Below are positions 5,709-64,000 of a stretch of DNA of 64,000 nucleotides, one piece after another (within the stretch, counting starts at the first letter, position 1; each line of letters begins with the position of its first letter). Source of the stretch: a virus; the IMG/VR virus record IMGVR_UViG_3300025087_000044, positions 35,114 to 99,113 of that record; one strand, written 5' to 3'. A program made the position numbers and the translations under genes. The notes below the pieces were generated by a model that was not told the DNA's origin, searched no databases, and saw nothing but the letters and a program-made list of their open reading frames with translations.

Positions 5709-5891
5709 ATGAAAAAAGGCCAACAATTGGCGTGTATATTGCGAGAACTTGCAGAAAACATTGCCATAATCAGAGACAAGGGGACTGATTGGAGCGAATG
5801 TATGTTTGATGATATCGAAGAAGTTTGTCGTGAGTTTGACAAAAGCGATAAATTCACAACCAAAGAGAATCGAGTTAATCAAGGGAAATGA
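5709..5891 (+). CDS. hypothetical protein
   Basis: shares C-terminal TKENRVNQGK with the upstream ORF. Confidence 0.5.
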   Translation: MKKGQQLACILRELAENIAIIRDKGTDWSECMFDDIEEVCREFDKSDKFTTKENRVNQGK

Positions 5892-6118
5892 TTATGACAA
5901 TATCAGATAAAGAATTGGGGGAAAAGCTTCTCAAGTGGATTAGGCGGTATCATCAATATTGCCATAAAGTTATGGTTGAGTTGCCCGATGGAAACATTAC
6001 AACGCAATACAAAGAAGGCGACCTTATGATATGCAAAGCTTGTAAAGATGAGATAGCTTTACTAGAAGAAGAAATAAACAAAAGAAATAAAAAGATAATT
6101 AAAAATAGACTTGTATGA
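5888..6118 (+). CDS. hypothetical protein
   Basis: ATGA-coupled ORF. Confidence 0.5.
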   Translation: MIMTISDKELGEKLLKWIRRYHQYCHKVMVELPDGNITTQYKEGDLMICKACKDEIALLEEEINKRNKKIIKNRLV

Positions 6119-12549: not shown

Positions 12550-12606
12550 TTATCCACATCAAAACCCCCAAAACCCCTTTACAATATTAAAAAACCATGC
12601 TATAAT
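12550..12606 (+). promoter_or_regulatory. DnaA box plus repeated promoter
   Basis: TTATCCACA 12550-12558; TTTACA-17-TATAAT with TG extension. Confidence 0.7.
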
Positions 12607-27026: not shown

Positions 27027-27731
27027 ATGTCCACTGAAATTAAACAGAATCAGCTTATAGACATTAACTTGTTAGAGCCAGCAGAGTTCAATCCTAACAA
27101 GATGCCTGACAAGAAATTTAATAAGTTGGTCGAGAGAATAGCAGAACAGGGATTCAAGGACCCAATTAGTGTTGTTCCTCTTGAGGATGGTAGATATAGG
27201 ATTATTGAAGGAGAACATAGATGGCGTGCTGGAAAGTATTTGGATATGTCTCAAGTGCCAGTTTTTATACACACAGACTGGGATGATGATAAGCAAAAGT
27301 TTGAGATAGTTAAGAGTAACATTCTCAAAGGAGAGATTGATGTAGAGAAATTCACTAAACTTGTCAATGGTCTAAACGACAAATATGAAAACGATATTTT
27401 GTCAGACATGATGGGGTTCACTGATGAGGCTGAGTTTGGGAAGTTCTACGAGAAAGTTCGTTCTGGCTTGCCAGATGAATTGAAAGACAAACTCGATGCT
27501 GTTAAAGATGAGATTAAAACAATAGACGACCTTAGCAATATCCTGAACCGCTTGTTTAGAGAGTATGGCTCAACTTTAGAGCAAGGTTTCATGATGTTTG
27601 ACTATGGCGGCAAGGACAATATCTGGATTAAGTGTAATGACCATTTATGGAAAAAAGTTGTTGAAATAAAAAACAAGTGTACTGCTGAAAGCAAGGACAT
27701 CAACGATACATTCATTGAGTACTTGAAATAA
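27027..27731 (+). CDS. ParB/Srx-like N-terminal domain protein
   Basis: FNPNKM...GFKDPISV...IIEGEHRWRA. Confidence 0.85.
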   Translation: MSTEIKQNQLIDINLLEPAEFNPNKMPDKKFNKLVERIAEQGFKDPISVVPLEDGRYRIIEGEHRWRAGKYLDMSQVPVFIHTDWDDDKQKFEIVKSNILKGEIDVEKFTKLVNGLNDKYENDILSDMMGFTDEAEFGKFYEKVRSGLPDELKDKLDAVKDEIKTIDDLSNILNRLFREYGSTLEQGFMMFDYGGKDNIWIKCNDHLWKKVVEIKNKCTAESKDINDTFIEYLK

Positions 27732-27884
27732 TATGAAAACAACAACAGAAGAACAATCTAAAGTAGTTGAAGATAAAATAACGGGACGCTCAACTGCAAC
27801 TGGTGAATTGTTTTTAGAAAGAAGTAAATTGGCTAAAATAATTGTTGAATTGTTTGACAGGATAGAAGAACTTGAGAATAAGTT

Positions 27885-27956
27885 GCGTCAATAATTCATG
27901 GGTTAGAATCTGAGATTTCCAATCTCGGTAAAAGGGTTCAAGTCCCTTTTGACGCT
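27885..27956 (+). tRNA. tRNA-Gly(TCC)
   Basis: acceptor GCGTCAA/TTGACGC, anticodon arm TGAGA-TTTCCAA-TCTCG, GGGTTCAAGTCCC, U73. Confidence 0.8.
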
Positions 27957-27991
27957 TCGTGGGTATCCATGAGGTTGTACGCAGGATACAT

Positions 27992-28068
27992 CTAGCACTC
28001 CAATTAAAAGCGACTGATGAGAGAGTAACCCTCTCGAAACTCATGAGAGTCTCGCGGAGTAGCCCTAG
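27992..28068 (+). ncRNA. type I hammerhead ribozyme
   Basis: GCGA-CTGATGA-GAGAG(taacc)CTCTC-GAAA-CTC(atga)GAG-TC-TCGC; stem I extended by ACTCC/GGAGT; predicted cleavage after GUC at 28051. Confidence 0.85.
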
Positions 28069-28154
28069 GAGTGGAATAACTGGCTACCAGCAACCTCTTT
28101 AGCAAATAGTACCTTACACAACTTACTGGCTAATACCACAAGGTCAAAACAAAT

Positions 28155-28547
28155 ATGCCCTTGCGTTATAATCGTATGGATAAGAATATAAGTGAAATGT
28201 TGAATTGCTTCATGGACAGCAATCTTAGAATAAAGGAAAGCTCAGAAATTGATGTTCCTAAAAGAACTGGAGATACGGGGTTTGACGGGGACGTGTGTTC
28301 TTATGCAGTAGGAGGCTTTCCGGTTCCTAGTGGTACAGTCCCTATGACTGGTTGGAATTGGTGGCAAGATTATTATTACCCCAATGTAATAAGAGAAGTC
28401 TATCCTGTATACGTCCAAGAAAGAACAATTGATTCCGGCAAGAAAGCCTATGAGATAATTAAAGCTCTCAATGACAAGAAGATTATCAAACTGGACAAGG
28501 TGTCAGACTTTGTTGAAGCTATGGACTTATTGATTAAAATGTTGTAG
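28155..28547 (+). CDS. hypothetical protein
   Basis: 130-aa ORF; start uncertain. Confidence 0.55.
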   Translation: MPLRYNRMDKNISEMLNCFMDSNLRIKESSEIDVPKRTGDTGFDGDVCSYAVGGFPVPSGTVPMTGWNWWQDYYYPNVIREVYPVYVQERTIDSGKKAYEIIKALNDKKIIKLDKVSDFVEAMDLLIKML

Positions 28548-28617: not shown

Positions 28618-29517
28618 ATGGAAGAAGTTGTCAATCCCAAAATAAGTACCGAGGCAAGGATAGGGTATACCGTTAAGGCAAATCAATGGAGTGCTAAAGG
28701 TGGATTGATAAGTCATCTCATGAAGACTGAGCCTGGATTTAGAGAGTTCTTTCATGAAGAGATAATGAAGAAGAGTATTCCTGTTGGAGTGTTTATTGCT
28801 AGAATGAGAGAAAAGTTTCCCAAGCTTGATGAAGAGATGTATCCGTGTGAAGCTACGGTATATAACTATAAGAGGAAGTTAAAGAAAGATTTGAATGACG
28901 ACGCTAACATTGGCCTTGCCATGAAGAGCGAGATAAAGATATTGCAGACGATGGATGGGTTTAATTTCTTCGAAGAGGTGAAAGACATCTATGATAAGAT
29001 ATGTTTTTCAGTAGATATAGCAGAGAAAGCCATTGCTCACATAGTGGATTTGATGGAGAGGACTAAGTTGCCGCCACAACCATTGTGGGATGCCTTGCTT
29101 AACATGAAGGAGTTATTGAAAGCAAGGTCAGAGCATCTTAGTGAGTTGGATAAGTTGAGTGTGAGGTTCGGACTTATGCCAGCCAGAGAAGAACGCAATA
29201 TCATTTTTGCCCAGCAGAACAACATCATGACAATGAATGACGAGCAGGTTGATGTCATGGGTAAGATTGGATTGAAAGTAGAAGATTTTGAAGACGATAA
29301 TCTTGAGAAGACTATGAGTAAAGTAATGGGATATTATTCAAAAACGTATGGAATTGGAGAACAACAATCTGGAGCAATCCTTGTTGAAGGACAGTCAGTT
29401 CAGGATGATGGACCAGAAGAAACGCTCCAACCAGATGAAGATATTGGAAATGATAGTCCAAATGGAGAAGATAAAACTGGAAGGGAAGCGGAGCCTATGG
29501 AAGAAGAGTTACTTTGA
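28618..29517 (+). CDS. putative terminase small subunit
   Basis: HTH-like N-terminus, helical; directly upstream of and overlapping TerL. Confidence 0.55.
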   Translation: MEEVVNPKISTEARIGYTVKANQWSAKGGLISHLMKTEPGFREFFHEEIMKKSIPVGVFIARMREKFPKLDEEMYPCEATVYNYKRKLKKDLNDDANIGLAMKSEIKILQTMDGFNFFEEVKDIYDKICFSVDIAEKAIAHIVDLMERTKLPPQPLWDALLNMKELLKARSEHLSELDKLSVRFGLMPAREERNIIFAQQNNIMTMNDEQVDVMGKIGLKVEDFEDDNLEKTMSKVMGYYSKTYGIGEQQSGAILVEGQSVQDDGPEETLQPDEDIGNDSPNGEDKTGREAEPMEEELL

Positions 29518-30985
29518 TTGGGTAAAGGACAACTGGTCAAGCAGGGGAAATAAGTTGGATTTCAATAATAGAAAATATCTTGAGCAGGTTTATAAAGACC
29601 AAAGCCAAGAGATTGTCTATAAGAAATCTGCTCAGGTGGGAATAACTGAAAGGATGGTGTCAGAGGCGGTATGGCTTCCGGACCAGATGCCAAACAATTC
29701 ACTTTATCTATTTCCGACTTCGACTACCATGTCAGACTTGGTTCAGGAGCGTGTGGATATGCCATTGAACAACTCTGATTTCTTGCGAGAGATTTCAGCA
29801 AGAGCCAAGAAGTTAATGGGCAAGCAGGCGGACAACGTGGGATTGAAGCGGATGTCCAAAGGCTATATCTATTTCAGAGGAAGCAATAGTCCTGCAATGA
29901 TTACCTCTGTTTCAGCTGATGCCATATTCGTTGATGAGCTGGACAGGATGACAATGGAGAACGTTCCTTATTTTGATAAACGGTTATTGAATTCCGATTT
30001 AAAATGGAAGCGTTGGGCAAGCACACCAACCGTTCCAGGTTACGGGATAGACAAGAAATGGATGGAAAGCGACCAGCATATTTATCTGGTTAAGTGCAGC
30101 CATTGCAATGAGATTCAAGAACTTACATTCTGGGATAATGTTGACGATGTTAATGAAACGGTTATCTGCAAGCGATGTCATAACATTATCATTCCATGGA
30201 CGTTGAGCGGTGAATGGGTCAAGACCAAGGAGTCAGAGGTTAGAGGATATTACATCAACCAACTTTATTCGCCTAAACTTGATTTGCATGACATGATTAA
30301 GGCTTCAATAAAGACTTCCGATTCAGATGTACAGCAATTTTACAATCAGAACTTAGGTCTTCCGTACGAGCCTAAAGGAGCAAAGTTGAACAATGCTGAT
30401 ATCCAGAGTTGTATCAGAGATTATGTTTATCCAGCCAACGAAGAAACTGAATTTATCGGGATTGATGTAGGTAAGGTGTTTCATGTTGTGGTGTTGGGAG
30501 TTAATCGGTTCTTGGATGCACAGTCGTTTAGGACAAAAGAAGAACTGATAAACTTCCTTTCGGGTAGGAATTTCAAAGGAATGGTAATTGACGCATTGCC
30601 CGAGACCAGAGTTTCACAAGAGGTTGTAAGTTCATTCTCAGGCCGAGCACATTATTGTTTCTATGCTTTTTCAAAACCAAGTACTGATGAATGGTGGAAG
30701 GTTGATGAGGACAAGGTGGGTACGGACAGGACTTTATCATTAGACGTTCTATTCAACCGTATTAAGACGCAAGACTTAGAGATGCCCAAGAACATCTTGG
30801 AGCATACTGAATTCATTGCTCACTTAAAGTCAACGTCAAGGATAGTTGATATGGAAGGTTCAAAACCCGTGGTTGAGTATAAAGAAACAAGTGCCGACCA
30901 TTATCTGCACGCCATGAATTATGCCAATTTGGCAAAAGACATATTCGAAAAGACTAATTCAGAACCTGTAATAATGTTCATATAG
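29348..30985 (+). CDS. terL: terminase large subunit (GpA-like)
   Basis: KSAQVGITE Walker A, FVDELD Walker B, ASTPT, zinc ribbon, GIDVG...DHYLHA nuclease. Confidence 0.92.
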   Translation: MELENNNLEQSLLKDSQFRMMDQKKRSNQMKILEMIVQMEKIKLEGKRSLWKKSYFDWVKDNWSSRGNKLDFNNRKYLEQVYKDQSQEIVYKKSAQVGITERMVSEAVWLPDQMPNNSLYLFPTSTTMSDLVQERVDMPLNNSDFLREISARAKKLMGKQADNVGLKRMSKGYIYFRGSNSPAMITSVSADAIFVDELDRMTMENVPYFDKRLLNSDLKWKRWASTPTVPGYGIDKKWMESDQHIYLVKCSHCNEIQELTFWDNVDDVNETVICKRCHNIIIPWTLSGEWVKTKESEVRGYYINQLYSPKLDLHDMIKASIKTSDSDVQQFYNQNLGLPYEPKGAKLNNADIQSCIRDYVYPANEETEFIGIDVGKVFHVVVLGVNRFLDAQSFRTKEELINFLSGRNFKGMVIDALPETRVSQEVVSSFSGRAHYCFYAFSKPSTDEWWKVDEDKVGTDRTLSLDVLFNRIKTQDLEMPKNILEHTEFIAHLKSTSRIVDMEGSKPVVEYKETSADHYLHAMNYANLAKDIFEKTNSEPVIMFI

Positions 30986-55300: not shown

Positions 55301-57518
55301 GTAATGTAGTGACATAGAAGATAAAGAACTTCTATTATAACAAAATTGAATGAAGTTACGGTGGTTCCGATGAAGAGGGACATCATGAAGATTCCGACAT
55401 TGACATCTGGCCCGAAAGTAGCTTGGACGGCTGAGAATGCCGCGAAAAGCACAACGACAGCTACGTTCGATGAGGCGACTTTGACCGTCAAAAAGATGGC
55501 CGCCATAAAAATACATTGTGGCACTATACTGAAAAGTATAGTTAAAAATTCGGTAAATTGCTGGAAAACCCTGTTTCAAAACAGGACAATCAGCAGCCAA
55601 GCTTTGGCTTAAATGGCCAATGAAGGTTCAGAGACTAGGTGGTGAAACTATATATATAGAATATATCCACTCACGAAAACCGAATATCTATTTTGAACTT
55701 TGACAATTGACAATTACACTCTCATTATATATAATACAATTATTTATAAACTAATTGTGATATTGTATGAGAGAAAGAATAATCCTTGATAAAAAGACAA
55801 ACAGACTTGGAACGCTAAGTTATTTTGTGAAATGTGTTATGTGCGGAAAAGAGTTCTGGATAACAGAAAGTCAATTCAAAGACGGAAGAGGCCTTTACTG
55901 TTCACAGAAATGTTATCACTCTGACCCATTAGTAATTGATAATTTCAACAAAAGTTTTGCTTCGTTTAAAAAGGGAAAAGCTTCATGGAGTAAAGGGTTG
56001 ACTAAAGAAACTAGTATAATTATAAAACGAATGGCAGAAAAAAGAATTGGTGATAAGCATCCGTTATGGAAAGGAGGAAGAGCCAAAATGACTGGCGGAT
56101 ATATCGGTGTATTGATTCCAGAGCATCCAGATGCCAATGTTAACGGACGAGTTTTAGAACATAGATTGGTAATGGAAAAGAAACTTGGAAGAAGACTTGT
56201 TCATTACGAAGAGGTCCATCATAGAAACGGAATTAAAACTGATAACAGACCAGAAAACTTAGAGCTTGTATTGAAGTACAAACATCAAGGAGAAATTCAA
56301 TGTCCATATTGTCAATGTATGTTTAAAATAAAATAGATAATGATATAGTCCGACCTTACAGGAAACTGTAAGAAGCAGAAGATAAAGAGCTTTTGCGATA
56401 ACAAATTGAATGTACATCTCGGACGAATTGGTAGAAGATTCTGATAGCATCGACATCGTTAAGTTCATTGTTACTTTGTTCTCTGAAGCGATTGGAACCG
56501 AAGAAGACCGTGTTATCACAGCGGGTAACGGAACTACTGAGCCTACCGGCTACAATACTTCCGCCAATCCTGGAACGATAGCATGTTCTGGCAACTTGAG
56601 TTATGCCAACATGGTAGACCTCGAGTACACTTTGCCTGCGAAATATCATCGCAATGCAAAGTTCTTCGCGCACAGGAACAACATTCGAGAACTCCGCAAG
56701 ATGGTGGATTCCAATTCACGTCCTTTGTGGAGCGACCCGATTGCTCCTGGCCAGCCCCCGACATGGCACGGATTAAGTGGTAGTCCCTGTTATGCGTAAT
56801 CATAACAGAAAAGACGGTGAATTGCTGGAAAACCCTGTTTCAAAACAGGGCAATCAGCAGCCAAGCTTTACCAGTAATGGTTTAGAAGGTCCAACGACTA
56901 GGGGATGAGTCCACGTAGTGGATGATAATTTCCCCCAAGAGTGCCGTCCACCTTGAAAAAGGTGATGATATAGTCTGAACACTGACTATAAATAAAATCA
57001 GTGAAGCAAGAAATAAAGAGTTCTTGCGATAACATAATTGACCAAGTCGTTGAAGACAACAATCTGCCTGAGTCAGTTATCGCCTTTGGCGATTTGAAGC
57101 AGGCTTATTGGTTGGGCGACCGCAAGTCTATGACAGTGAAGGTAACTCAGGACACTGAGACTGCATTAACTGGTACATCGTACAAGTGCAGTATAAAGAG
57201 GATGAATTGCTGGGAAGCCCTGAAATGGGTTATCAGCAGCCTAGCTTTGCCAGTAATGGCTTAGAAGGTTCAGAGCATAGAGTCCGAGTCCCTCCGGGAC
57301 GATAATGACTCCACGAGCGTCCTCAATCCATTAGTTTAATGGATTATGATATATGCCGACCACCAGATATGAATAAAACTGGTGAAAAGTCAGATAAAAA
57401 ACTGGCTTGTTAAAAATATTTAGTTGTCCATGACCAAACAGCTGTCCGTGTTGTTTCTCGCATTGCAGGTAATGTAGTTAATCCGTACGCTATCAAGAAA
57501 CTTACAAACATTCCGTAG
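52324..57518 (+). CDS. HK97-fold major capsid protein, spliced from 7 exons (393 aa)
   Basis: join(52324..52677,53649..53678,54547..54600,55349..55506,56409..56773,57041..57166,57424..57518) = 1182 nt open frame: ...ALSEG-TAADGGYLFP-DEFVSEVVRDL...MR-NEVTVVPM...KKMAAI-MYISDELVEDS...WHGY-QVVEDNNLP...FGDL...TAF-VHDQTAVRVVSR...NIP*. Confidence 0.93.
52678..53648 (+). mobile_element. group I intron 1 of capsid gene (971 nt, HNH ORF in P8)
   Basis: P1 GAGGGU/GCCCUC; AATCAGCAG; AACGACTAG; GATATAGTC; terminal G 53648. Confidence 0.92.
52915..53574 (+). CDS. intron-encoded HNH homing endonuclease
   Basis: zinc-finger repeats, NPNWKGG; CMICG...VHHIDY.K.N....NLISLCNVCH. Confidence 0.88.
   Translation: MRKILQKIKTARGIGYVMECVNCHKPFRIKKWDYDNLRKGTYCSNSCRGEYQRVSLVGKLNPNWKGGKVQIKCMVCGTRVMIKVKDAKRGGKYCSKRCKDYDNSRVVKMNYANNPGLRDKTKHVGDKNGRWLCGKSFEPYTTSFNEHTKNIVKDRDNRVCMICGVNEKDLRESLNVHHIDYDKKNSNINNLISLCNVCHSKTNSNREYWRNYLSSLIVN
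53679..54546 (+). mobile_element. group I intron 2 (868 nt, HNH ORF in P8)
   Basis: P1 CCCU/GGGG; P10 AUUCAU/AUGAGU; core motifs; terminal G 54546. Confidence 0.9.
53905..54474 (+). CDS. intron-encoded NUMOD3-HNH endonuclease
   Basis: WNKGKK, GRHHSDKTKEK; VFERDDYTCQDC...HHIK...LCKKCH. Confidence 0.88.
   Translation: MRKGSKMTLEQRKRVSLAHFGHPAWNKGKKMPEWWGRLSSERVLAGIGGMKGRHHSDKTKEKQRKSNKTKLLWQNPDYRKMMSEKHKWLTGKNNPAYIDGRKPLVMRVRNSEKYEKWIKSVFERDDYTCQDCNVRGGKLEAHHIKGFSKIFSENNFKTFEQVMDCEEMWNMDNGLTLCKKCHSKISTRR
54601..55348 (+). mobile_element. group I intron 3 (748 nt, antisense HNH ORF in P8)
   Basis: P1 GCGU/GCGC; AACGACTAG; AAGATATAGTCTG; terminal G 55348. Confidence 0.9.
54775..55212 (-). CDS. 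intron-encoded HNH endonuclease on the antisense strand
   Basis: YVPEHRL...VHHLNGIRNDNRPENL. Confidence 0.85.
   Translation of the reverse strand: MLRKKIVNFCIDCNKQIPKKNLRCASCNYKLPERGATISKRQMLSGNPMWRGGKFNTADGYVKVKMRNHYLSDSNGYVPEHRLIASIKYNKQLTKQDVVHHLNGIRNDNRPENLVITDKKGNGEKTFIKCLQEHIKFLESQLSKL
55507..56408 (+). mobile_element. group I intron 4 (902 nt, HNH ORF in P8)
   Basis: P1 GCCAU/GUGGC; P10 UACAUU/AAUGUA; core motifs; terminal G 56408. Confidence 0.92.
55767..56336 (+). CDS. intron-encoded HNH endonuclease
   Basis: LEHRLVME..LGR...VHHRNGIKTDNRPENL. Confidence 0.88.
   Translation: MRERIILDKKTNRLGTLSYFVKCVMCGKEFWITESQFKDGRGLYCSQKCYHSDPLVIDNFNKSFASFKKGKASWSKGLTKETSIIIKRMAEKRIGDKHPLWKGGRAKMTGGYIGVLIPEHPDANVNGRVLEHRLVMEKKLGRRLVHYEEVHHRNGIKTDNRPENLELVLKYKHQGEIQCPYCQCMFKIK
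56774..57040 (+). ncRNA. group I intron 5 (267 nt, no ORF)
   Basis: P1 GGAU/GUCC; short P8 CACCTT-GAAA-AAGGTG; terminal G 57040. Confidence 0.92.
57167..57423 (+). ncRNA. group I intron 6 (257 nt, no ORF, variant P7)
   Basis: P1 ACUGCAU/GUGCAGU; P7 GCAUA/UAUGC; P8 AATCCATTA/TAATGGATT; terminal G 57423. Confidence 0.88.
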
Positions 57519-61731: not shown

Positions 61732-63459
61732 ATGGCACAATCAGTATTAGCAAAATTAAAAGCTGAGGGGGTGCTAAAACTCTGGCGCGCATACCGTGCC
61801 GGTCATTTTCAGGATTTGGGTGACAGCAATCACGGCACACCGACATCGGTGGTATTGGGATACAGAGGCGCTTCATTCCCATTGATTACCTCGCTCGAAA
61901 CGATTGCGGATAGCTCCAATTTAAGGCTGACTACGGGAACGGTTATAGTTTTTGGTAATTTCAATTCGCAGACGGCGACTGAAACGCTGGTCTCCAAAAA
62001 AGACGCAGGCGGAACGATGTATGATTTATATCTTAACGCCACGCAATTGGTGTTTTCTGATGGGACTAATAACAGAACGATTACCACAAGCTTGAATAAC
62101 AAGCGGTGTATCGGCGTTACCTTTGCTACAGGCGGAACGCCTATCGGGTATGTTGATGGGCTGTCAATTGGTAATTTTTCGGGTGCTGTAACAATAGCGG
62201 CCGATGACGCGCCATTGATTCTGGGTAATATCTATTCCGGGTCGCAGAACTCACAGAATACCATTGCTGATGTATTGCTATGCAGTCGCGTATTGACCGC
62301 TTCCGAGATGGCGGCAGTTTGCGCCGAGTTGAATAATACCACGTGGCCGACAATGCCATTCTCCAGATTCAATCGCGACAAGGACAATCAGTTCTACGAT
62401 TATGATATGGAGGGTTCTGGGATTTCGGGGTTCTGGGAGGCCGGTAATAACGCTACGGTAACGAAAGAAACCACAACTCCGCACAGTGGATTGCAGTGTT
62501 TGAGGGTGGCCCGGTCTGACACCAACGCTGCGTATGCCAAGAACAGTGTCAGCTCCCTAAGATACCCTGTAGGTGAGTACGTTAAGGTGTGGGGCTGGTT
62601 CAGAGGTGATGGTACGAACTACGCTTACGTTAATTTCAATGGTGTAACGGTAGCGACCTCGACTACGGCGAATACGTGGCAGTATTTCGAGTTTGTCGGT
62701 ACGGCTAAGCTGGCCTCAAGCTTCAATCCGATACGGTTCTTATGCAGTGCGACTGTTTCAGGCGGTTACGCAGAGTTCGATGATGTCGGCTTAATGACGT
62801 TTTCCAAGAAGAATTTCAAAACTGACTGGGGTGTTAAGGCGAGTATCGCAGCGGAAGGCGGCGTAGTTTCACAATATCTCGACCGGAGTAATTTCATGTT
62901 TGGGGATGCTACAGCGCGCTACAAGGTATCAACGGACACTATCCAAGGCAAGCTGGTCAAGGTAATAGAATGTACCACGGCCGGGCTATTGTCGCTTCCG
63001 ACCTCGATATTCGGTGAAAGCAGTACATCAGAGGCGGCGTATGGTACGTGGGAGGGCTGGGCGTACAAGGGGAGTGACGCTGGAACTATGAATATAGCGT
63101 TCATCTGCGATTCGCCAACGAGCATAGCTGGCAGCGGCTACAAGCTGGCGTTCACAGCAACGGAGACGGTGCAGATAGCGCGGTTGACCGGTACGGTGCA
63201 TTTGGAGACCGCGGCTGCGTATATCACTATCAACACGTGGTACAAATGGAAGATAACCAGAACCATTTTGGGCGTAACTTGTCTCTGGCTGAATGACGTA
63301 TTGGTGAGCGTTACCGGCGGCAGCGGCACTAATCCGTACACAAGCACGGCTTATACTTCCAGCACGCACGTGGTTTTGGACTTTAACGCAGGTGATAAGC
63401 TGGCCATTGCCGATGTCGGCGGTAATTATTCATTCAGGAAATATCTTAATGTAATTTAA
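61732..63459 (+). CDS. LamG plus carbohydrate-binding-like virion protein
   Basis: YVDG...LILGN...RVLTASE; PHSGLQCLRV...WQYFE...FDDV. Confidence 0.7.
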   Translation: MAQSVLAKLKAEGVLKLWRAYRAGHFQDLGDSNHGTPTSVVLGYRGASFPLITSLETIADSSNLRLTTGTVIVFGNFNSQTATETLVSKKDAGGTMYDLYLNATQLVFSDGTNNRTITTSLNNKRCIGVTFATGGTPIGYVDGLSIGNFSGAVTIAADDAPLILGNIYSGSQNSQNTIADVLLCSRVLTASEMAAVCAELNNTTWPTMPFSRFNRDKDNQFYDYDMEGSGISGFWEAGNNATVTKETTTPHSGLQCLRVARSDTNAAYAKNSVSSLRYPVGEYVKVWGWFRGDGTNYAYVNFNGVTVATSTTANTWQYFEFVGTAKLASSFNPIRFLCSATVSGGYAEFDDVGLMTFSKKNFKTDWGVKASIAAEGGVVSQYLDRSNFMFGDATARYKVSTDTIQGKLVKVIECTTAGLLSLPTSIFGESSTSEAAYGTWEGWAYKGSDAGTMNIAFICDSPTSIAGSGYKLAFTATETVQIARLTGTVHLETAAAYITINTWYKWKITRTILGVTCLWLNDVLVSVTGGSGTNPYTSTAYTSSTHVVLDFNAGDKLAIADVGGNYSFRKYLNVI

Positions 63460-63472
63460 CCATAAAGGGGAT

Positions 63473-63781
63473 ATGGAACAAGAAAGCACACATAGCAAAG
63501 TCAATACAGACATCATCTTGGAACGGTTGACCAATCTAATCACGGTCAATTCCAAGGAGCATGAAGTGATTGAGAAGACGCGCGATGATTATCGTGTCGA
63601 ATTGCTCGGCGCGGTGAGTGATGTTAAGGCGGCCGTGATAGGGCTGGACGCAAGAGTACTGAAGCTGGAGAAGTGGCAGATAGGGTTCGTTGCCAAGTTC
63701 TCTACGTATTCCGCACTGGCGTTATTTCTGGGCAGTGTTCTGGCTAATCTGGCGATTTCGTTCGTTTCACGATATTTATAA
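63473..63781 (+). CDS. holin-like / XhlA-like membrane protein
   Basis: coiled coil (RVLKLEKW) followed by a C-terminal TM helix. Confidence 0.45.
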   Translation: MEQESTHSKVNTDIILERLTNLITVNSKEHEVIEKTRDDYRVELLGAVSDVKAAVIGLDARVLKLEKWQIGFVAKFSTYSALALFLGSVLANLAISFVSRYL

Positions 63782-63795
63782 AAGGAGGAATGTAA

Positions 63796-63996
63796 ATGAG
63801 TTTGGACGATGTTCTGCAACCGATTACTAAAACCATTCGGTACACGAGCATGCGCAAGAAGAGGTGCGCTAACTGCAATCGCGAGGTACTTCATGAACTG
63901 GCTGAAACTGATACTTATAGTGCTTCCTATTGCCTTGCTTGCAAGTTTGAAACACTGGTTTGGAAGAAAGCGAGGAAAGGAGATGTGCGACCGTGA
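63796..63996 (+). CDS. small zinc-ribbon protein
   Basis: CANC...CLAC; AGGAGG RBS. Confidence 0.5.
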   Translation: MSLDDVLQPITKTIRYTSMRKKRCANCNREVLHELAETDTYSASYCLACKFETLVWKKARKGDVRP

Positions 63997-64000
63997 CCAA

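Follow-up and report, generated by a model that had tools for sequence, protein, structure and literature searches.

A 198-nt spacer (positions 27957 to 28154) between a tRNA-Gly gene and a 130-residue open reading frame probably holds a genuine type I self-cleaving hammerhead ribozyme, which forms the end of a long stem I interrupted by a bulge. The window, i.e., the whole stretch of DNA analyzed, comprises 64,000 nucleotides and forms the end of an IMG/VR virus record of 99,113 bp. The hammerhead occupies positions 28010 to 28055 of the plus strand, and the whole element extends from 27991 to 28069 if the distal part of stem I is included. Its parts and the surrounding genes are listed in Table 1.

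The original prediction had described a complete core with intact stems I to III, and this description holds for every core nucleotide between 28010 and 28055. All 13 core positions agree with the consensus, and the pairs next to the core are A28013-U28052, G28021-C28035, and A28039-U28050, the last of which corresponds to A15.1-U16.1; G10.1-C11.1 and C17 are present as well. Stems I, II, and III comprise 4, 5, and 4 bp, respectively, which are Watson-Crick pairs throughout, and no mispair adjoins the core. The topology is that of type I, with an open stem I, loop-capped stems II and III, and the strands following one another in the canonical order. Perreault et al. accepted hammerheads in which the pairs adjacent to the core are intact and a short stem contains at most one mispair (PMC3088659), and the core and stems of the candidate agree with this rule in every point. 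The bulged extension of stem I, which had likewise been predicted, turned out to be real and longer than first described, with 11 bp beyond an 8-nt asymmetric bulge. The free energy of this distal duplex is -13.6 kcal/mol, compared to -6.7 ± 2.3 kcal/mol in shuffled flanks, and 0.65% of the shuffles equal it, so that the distal stem is significant independently of the core (p about 0.007). A second GGAGUG at positions 28068 to 28073 offers an alternative partner for CACUCC. The predicted cut after residue 28051 and the GTATCC/GGATAC stem between the tRNA and the ribozyme were also recovered as described.

Two tertiary contacts were considered. The stem I bulge AAUUAAAA is a candidate docking site for loop II, although the match between the two amounts to 3 bp (UUA/UAA) and is, by estimate, not beyond chance. 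The loop of the upstream hairpin (27963 to 27989) contains GGUUG, which is complementary to UAACC of loop II over 5 bp, by estimate again not beyond chance, and a contact between this hairpin loop and loop II is speculative.

Table 1. Features of the hammerhead candidate, in 5' to 3' order of the core strands, and of its gene neighborhood (window coordinates)
Feature	Position	Strand	Basis or remark
Stem I, 5' strand GCGA	28010-28013	+	sequence
Core CUGAUGA	28014-28020	+	sequence
Stem II GAGAG/CUCUC, loop UAACC	28021-28025/28031-28035	+	sequence
Core GAA	28036-28038	+	sequence
Stem III ACUC/GAGU, loop AUGA	28039-28042/28047-28050	+	sequence
C17	28051	+	sequence
Stem I, 3' strand UCGC	28052-28055	+	sequence
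Predicted self-cleavage site, after C17 (C28051)	28051/28052	+	hammerhead numbering
Asymmetric stem I bulge, 8 nt, AAUUAAAA	28002-28009	+	sequence
Distal stem I, 5' strand	27991-28001	+	pairs with 28056-28069, 11 bp
Distal stem I, 3' strand	28056-28069	+	bulges at A28061 and CC28064-28065
SWIM protein and glycosyltransferases	upstream of the ParB-like nuclease gene	+	gene order
ParB-like nuclease gene, last large upstream gene	27027-27731	+	phrog_26387, E 5e-72
53-aa ORF, without family match	27733-27894	+	stop codon 27892-27894 inside the tRNA gene
tRNA-Gly(UCC), without encoded CCA (TCG after 27956)	27885-27956	+	ARAGORN; Rfam RF00005, 55.3 bits
Hairpin GUAUCC/GGAUAC, 15-nt loop	27963-27989 (27963-27968/27984-27989)	+	sequence; present in the MFE fold
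130-aa ORF, first downstream gene, without family match	28155-28547	+	partial relatives in L001 and L002
299-aa ORF immediately 5' of TerL, without family match	28618-29517	+	
Large terminase subunit (TerL), gpA type	29348-30985	+	phrog_675, E 1e-93; PF05876, PF20454; 324 homologues
RtcB RNA ligase ORF, 709 aa	9731-11860	+	PF01139, E 1e-104

The frequency of such a motif by chance was estimated with two descriptors. A loose descriptor, allowing loops of up to 60 nt, gave one match in the window and three in 200 dinucleotide shuffles. A compact descriptor, defined by a minimum stem length of 4 bp, loops resembling those of natural hammerheads, and a core reduced to CUGANGA, GAAA, and UH, gave a single match in 2,373 shuffled windows. 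The site additionally possesses U7, G10.1-C11.1, C15.2-G16.2, and C17, none of which the compact descriptor demands, and by our own arithmetic these extra consensus positions lower the chance expectation by two further orders of magnitude.

For comparison, a reference set was assembled from an IMG/VR core-pattern collection with 84 core matches, 79 of which form 3 bp or more in stem I; a slightly wider descriptor applied to 80 reference loci yielded 98 phage type I hammerheads. The covariance model R1 was built from 81 non-identical phage type I hammerheads, with the candidate left out; in this alignment 97.5% of the positions concerned are paired and covariation is heavy, the sequences having been selected for pairing. 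With filters off and both strands of the window searched, R1 scored the candidate at 27.0 bits (E about 2e-6), its alignment spanning model positions 1 to 50. The runner-up within the window reached 12.2 bits and the maximum across 662 kb of other phage loci was 12.5 bits; no match was obtained in E. coli O157 Sakai. In the whole 99-kb record the candidate is the sole R1 match, and the descriptor scans likewise found the motif to be unique. When R1 was applied to the 80 metagenome loci preselected by the core pattern, clear hammerheads scored 39 to 57 bits, stemless matches mostly 10 to 22 bits, and a grey zone with imperfect stems lay at 25 to 33 bits. The candidate falls into this grey zone and below the clear members; in the frame of R1, the two outermost positions of its stem I remain unpaired and its stem III is short. 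Judged from sequence statistics together with an independent model, the call of a hammerhead appears well supported, and an origin of the motif by chance is very unlikely.

The check proposed along with the original prediction, a search with Infernal and the Rfam hammerhead models, did not recover the site. No hammerhead was reported in the 64-kb window at gathering score or on 401 nt at E ≤ 10, and RF00163 had no match in the whole record. On 91 nt, the best scores were 12.5 bits for HH9 (gathering score, 52) and 12.4 bits for RAGATH-1-hammerhead (gathering score, 56.3), and these weak alignments fall exactly on the hammerhead span. The behavior of Rfam 15 at gathering score was evaluated on 12 IMG/VR loci (L084, L087, L091, L094, L106, L107, L118, L120, L128, L137, L146, and L148), which together contain no fewer than 28 well-formed and covarying type I hammerheads of phages; it reported none of them. 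Since Rfam is blind to these, its miss at the present site carries little weight. Scans that rely on Rfam at gathering score will under-call short phage type I hammerheads, a blind spot that may be more useful to know of than the site itself.

All sizeable open reading frames around the ribozyme site lie on the plus strand. The start of TerL is located 1.3 kb downstream of the hammerhead, and family searches with the two open reading frames in between gave no match; the position of the second of these, immediately 5' of TerL, fits a small terminase subunit, a role suggested by position. No signal of a promoter or terminator was detected that would divide the upstream genes from the packaging genes. 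A near-perfect sigma-70-like promoter (TTTACA-17 nt-TATAAT) is present elsewhere in the window, at positions 12578 to 12606 directly 3' of a tRNA-Cys gene, and no comparable signal follows tRNA-Gly. The TAA stop codon of the 53-aa open reading frame lies inside the acceptor and the start of the D arm of tRNA-Gly (27885 to 27894), and an RNase P cut at 27884/27885 would therefore strip the stop codon from the message. Two group I introns were detected on the plus strand at positions 55497 to 55739 and 56764 to 57001, with Rfam scores of 59.4 and 78.9 bits, both above the gathering score. The record also contains two long repeats: G000:C1:17884-18427 and window positions 63457 to 64000 share an inverted stretch of 545 bp with 96% identity, and G000:C1:1-358 and window positions 5746 to 6109 form a direct repeat of 364 bp with 92% identity. 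One copy of the inverted stretch forms the extreme end of the record and the internal copy adjoins a cluster of tRNA-like genes. The record possibly joins sequences from two related phages.

In the loci related by the flanking genes (L001 and L002 for the 130-aa open reading frame and L003 for the ParB-like protein), a compact hammerhead is absent, as is a tRNA at the corresponding site. The same was found for 71 loci related by TerL alignment at up to 52% identity, and a compact hammerhead was also absent from five related records searched in full, one of which is complete. Among the 324 TerL homologues, the closest, P0001 and P0002, share 78% and 72% identity, and P0003 represents the same phage in a separate assembly; TerL alone as a query against IMG/VR and JGI metagenomes retrieved no close relatives. 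Exact-pattern scans with the same stem II or the same dimensions found no orthologue, and the locus had no BLAST match among GenBank phages. None of these searches yielded a motif-bearing relative from which covariation could be assessed.

That the candidate is a singleton is one of the points in favor of a reading in which the sequence is a chance or decayed hammerhead-like RNA that lacks a useful cleavage rate, which we consider very improbable. Others are its intermediate score and its predicted folding. On 50 nt, the hammerhead fold has a free energy of -11.7 kcal/mol, compared to -13.7 kcal/mol for the minimum free energy (MFE) structure, and on 85 nt the values are -18.7 and -22.0 kcal/mol. 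The competitor, which pairs C3U4 and AUGA of the core with stem III, is thus 2.0 kcal/mol better on 50 nt and 3.3 to 3.4 kcal/mol better with the long stem I, according to an energy model that leaves out the tertiary bonds of the core. A gap of at least 2 kcal/mol occurs in none of the 81 references, 89% of which have the hammerhead fold as their MFE structure. For the preferred reading of a genuine ribozyme, the calculation suggests a slow or condition-dependent cutter rather than a rapid, constitutively active one; some decay of the motif is the other possibility. Stems I and III are, in addition, at the short end of the reference range: stem I of the candidate measures 4 bp before the bulge, and 8 of the 98 references have a stem I of this length; a stem III of 4 bp occurs in 5 of them, and a stem II hairpin of 15 nt, as in the candidate, is found in one. 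Inactive hammerhead-like RNAs are also among those listed by Perreault et al. (PMC3088659). Against a chance or decayed sequence stand the 13 intact core positions with the three core-adjacent pairs at consensus, the single compact match among the shuffled windows, which was obtained even with a looser core, a distal stem I that is significant by itself, and the intergenic location on the coding strand, in a window of which about 15% is free of open reading frames of at least 70 aa. The spacer might instead encode a peptide of 47 aa, for which an open frame does exist from a GTG at 27959 to 28102 of the plus strand, with the RNA motif being incidental. This frame was rejected as a real gene and its probability is practically negligible, as the GTG lies two bases past the tRNA, is not preceded by a ribosome-binding site, and opens a frame that has no Pfam match and is rich in AGG, AGA, and CGG codons.

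A different possibility accepts the hammerhead as real and regards it as an insert or "arm" within a larger structured RNA, of which it would be a single module. This RNA would occupy the whole spacer (27957 to 28154) and be matured or switched by the cut, whose role would then not lie in mRNA processing. The possibility draws on a second, tRNA-Gly-like gene in the record (G000:17286-17356, minus strand), which is followed by a spacer with GCAGGAUAC, CUAG, AGCCCUA, and CUGGCnnnCAGCAA in the same order, and on three other loci in which a hammerhead is joined to a conserved pseudoknot-like RNA. In the latter (L207:4875-5035, L213:4107-4267, and L265:652-841 on the minus strand), the hammerhead is directly followed by a module GCCA..UUCCC..UGGC..GACGUUnAGUCGGGAA, whose order of pairing suggests an H-type pseudoknot. 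A search with the GACGUUnAGUCGGGAA motif of this module, however, retrieved L207 and L213 only, with a variant in L265, and the motif is absent from the window as well as from L075 and L076. The second tRNA-linked spacer contains no hammerhead and gave nothing in Rfam, and its similarity to the first does not exceed that of shuffles (local score of 18 compared to 16.6 ± 2.2; global z of about 1.6). GGAUAC pairs upstream in one of the two copies and downstream in the other, which means that the motif is common to both and the helix is not. Neither spacer folds better than its shuffles as a whole (z of -0.67 for the first), and an IMG/VR scan for motifs common to both returned only chance matches in coding sequence. 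With the alignment at shuffle level and the motif scan yielding nothing beyond such matches, a larger tRNA-linked RNA common to both spacers was rejected, and we regard the modular reading as rather unlikely. The tRNA-like gene belongs to an abutting pair outside the window (G000:C1:17286-17436, L075, minus strand) with Rfam scores of 39.7 and 46.3 bits. One member has the anticodon UUA and would read the UAA stop codon; the other is an aberrant relative of the tRNA-Gly of the window, designated "tRNA-???" by ARAGORN. The open reading frames of the window look normal under code 11.

The preferred reading, a self-contained type I hammerhead, leaves the neighboring tRNA to be accounted for. The distance given in the original prediction is correct: the tRNA ends at 27956, and with C17 at 28051 the cut lies 95 nt past this end. 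The proposal attached to it, that self-cleavage releases the tRNA precursor, proved weak, because the cut lies so far beyond a tRNA without encoded CCA and because the pairing of the two elements does not recur. The predicted cut does not coincide with the mature tRNA end and, at this distance, cannot generate it; a trailer ending in a 2',3'-cyclic phosphate would still need RNase Z-type processing. A tRNA within 1 kb accompanies a single one of the 98 sampled hammerheads, on its downstream side, and an upstream tRNA within this distance was found for none, so that a recurrent tRNA-hammerhead pairing was rejected. A scan for a hammerhead followed by the canonical tRNA positions 8 to 14 gave nine matches, none of which was a tRNA. 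Given the rarity of the pairing in the sample and the fact that the cut does not replace RNase Z, the adjacency looks incidental, with two RNA elements sharing one spacer rather than forming a maturation device. A closer association was observed in another record, IMGVR_UViG_3300045973_000170 (L125:5777-5908, minus strand), where a full type I hammerhead lies in a cluster of seven tRNAs. The 3' strand of its stem I doubles as the 5' strand of the tRNA-Tyr acceptor stem, and cleavage is predicted after C5866, with G5865 being base 1 of the tRNA. This cut would produce the tRNA 5' end without RNase P, and the case may be more useful than the site in the window itself.

The candidate could plausibly serve to process read-through RNA upstream of the packaging genes. 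The plus strand would be read through the spacer from the upstream ParB and glycosyltransferase genes, and the RNA would fold into the three-way junction and cut itself after C28051. Hammerhead cleavage after H17 yields a 2',3'-cyclic phosphate and a 5'-OH. The upstream RNA, consisting of the tRNA and its 95-nt trailer, would accordingly end in a 2',3'-cyclic phosphate, and the RNA of the packaging genes would begin with a 5'-OH; both new ends might stay buried in the stem I of roughly 15 bp. The two halves of the polycistronic RNA could thereby gain separate fates with regard to stability or translation, the role that has been proposed for other phage hammerheads. If active, the candidate would represent one more phage transcript cut by a ribozyme, in this case where DNA-modification genes and a tRNA give way to the packaging genes.

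The window also encodes an RtcB RNA ligase. RtcB joins 2',3'-cyclic-phosphate and 5'-OH ends, as they are made by hammerheads. The Pfam match of the RtcB open reading frame is split into two stretches, which suggests a large insertion (an intein or similar). The ribozyme might be coupled to tRNA excision and the phage RtcB, acting as a reversible switch that insulates the packaging message and whose ends are resealed or joined elsewhere; we judge such a coupling to be quite unlikely. In this scheme, excision of tRNA-Gly by RNase P and RNase Z would leave a 5'-monophosphate on the downstream RNA and invite 5'-end-dependent decay, the hammerhead 95 nt further on would substitute a helix-buried 5'-OH and so shield the message of the packaging genes, and RtcB could reseal the cut or join the ends elsewhere. 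Apart from this, a lone ribozyme at a clear module boundary in an RtcB-encoding phage would, if active, provide a tidy place for testing effects of the cut on the stability or translation of a downstream message.

Polycistronic RNAs of phages and prophages contain hammerheads that flank genes (Perreault et al. 2011, PMC3088659), and the 5' end of a halovirus mRNA maps to a hammerhead cut (PMC3088659). According to a review, the role of bacterial and phage hammerheads is unsettled (PMC6765202). With the phage and prophage type I hammerheads (PMC3088659; Rfam clan with RF00163, RF02275, and others), the candidate shares the full core, G10.1-C11.1, A15.1-U16.1, and C17, and it is likewise intergenic and located on the coding strand of a polycistronic gene block; no long open reading frame of the same strand encloses any of the 91 reference hammerheads. 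It differs from the 81 sampled phage hammerheads in several respects. These mostly have a plain stem I of 6 bp and a stem II of 4 bp, whereas stem I of the candidate consists of 4 bp, a bulge, and 11 bp, and the candidate has a competitor fold more stable than the hammerhead by a gap that none of the references reaches. The distance to the next open reading frame is 100 nt, compared to a median of 22 nt in the sampled phages, whose hammerheads start a median of 1 nt after the upstream open reading frame (n = 91). Sampled phage hammerheads adjoin small unknown genes downstream and never a terminase, whereas the candidate precedes packaging genes; the location upstream of a terminase is thus a local fact and not a habit of the class in this sample. 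The candidate adds to a kind of ribozyme that is already well known in phages and involves no new principle.

In the Schistosoma-type (metazoan) type I hammerheads, an internal loop of stem I docks on loop II. The candidate resembles them in being of type I and in having an asymmetric internal loop in stem I near the core and a small stem II loop. It shows no sequence relation to them, and its own loop-loop contact would be the possible UUA/UAA match. The theta ribozymes, which are minimal HDV-like ribozymes, adjoin phage tRNAs (Kienbeck et al. 2024, PMC10879173). They are comparable in representing a small self-cleaving class near a phage tRNA, and the present record also contains a suppressor-like tRNA; the ribozyme class is a different one, however, and the cut of the candidate is remote from the tRNA end. 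The hammerhead-tRNA fusion of L125, in which the cut lies just before base 1 of tRNA-Tyr and the acceptor strand forms part of stem I, shares with the candidate the type I architecture and the location of ribozyme and tRNA on one strand, whereas the candidate follows its tRNA as a separate downstream element.
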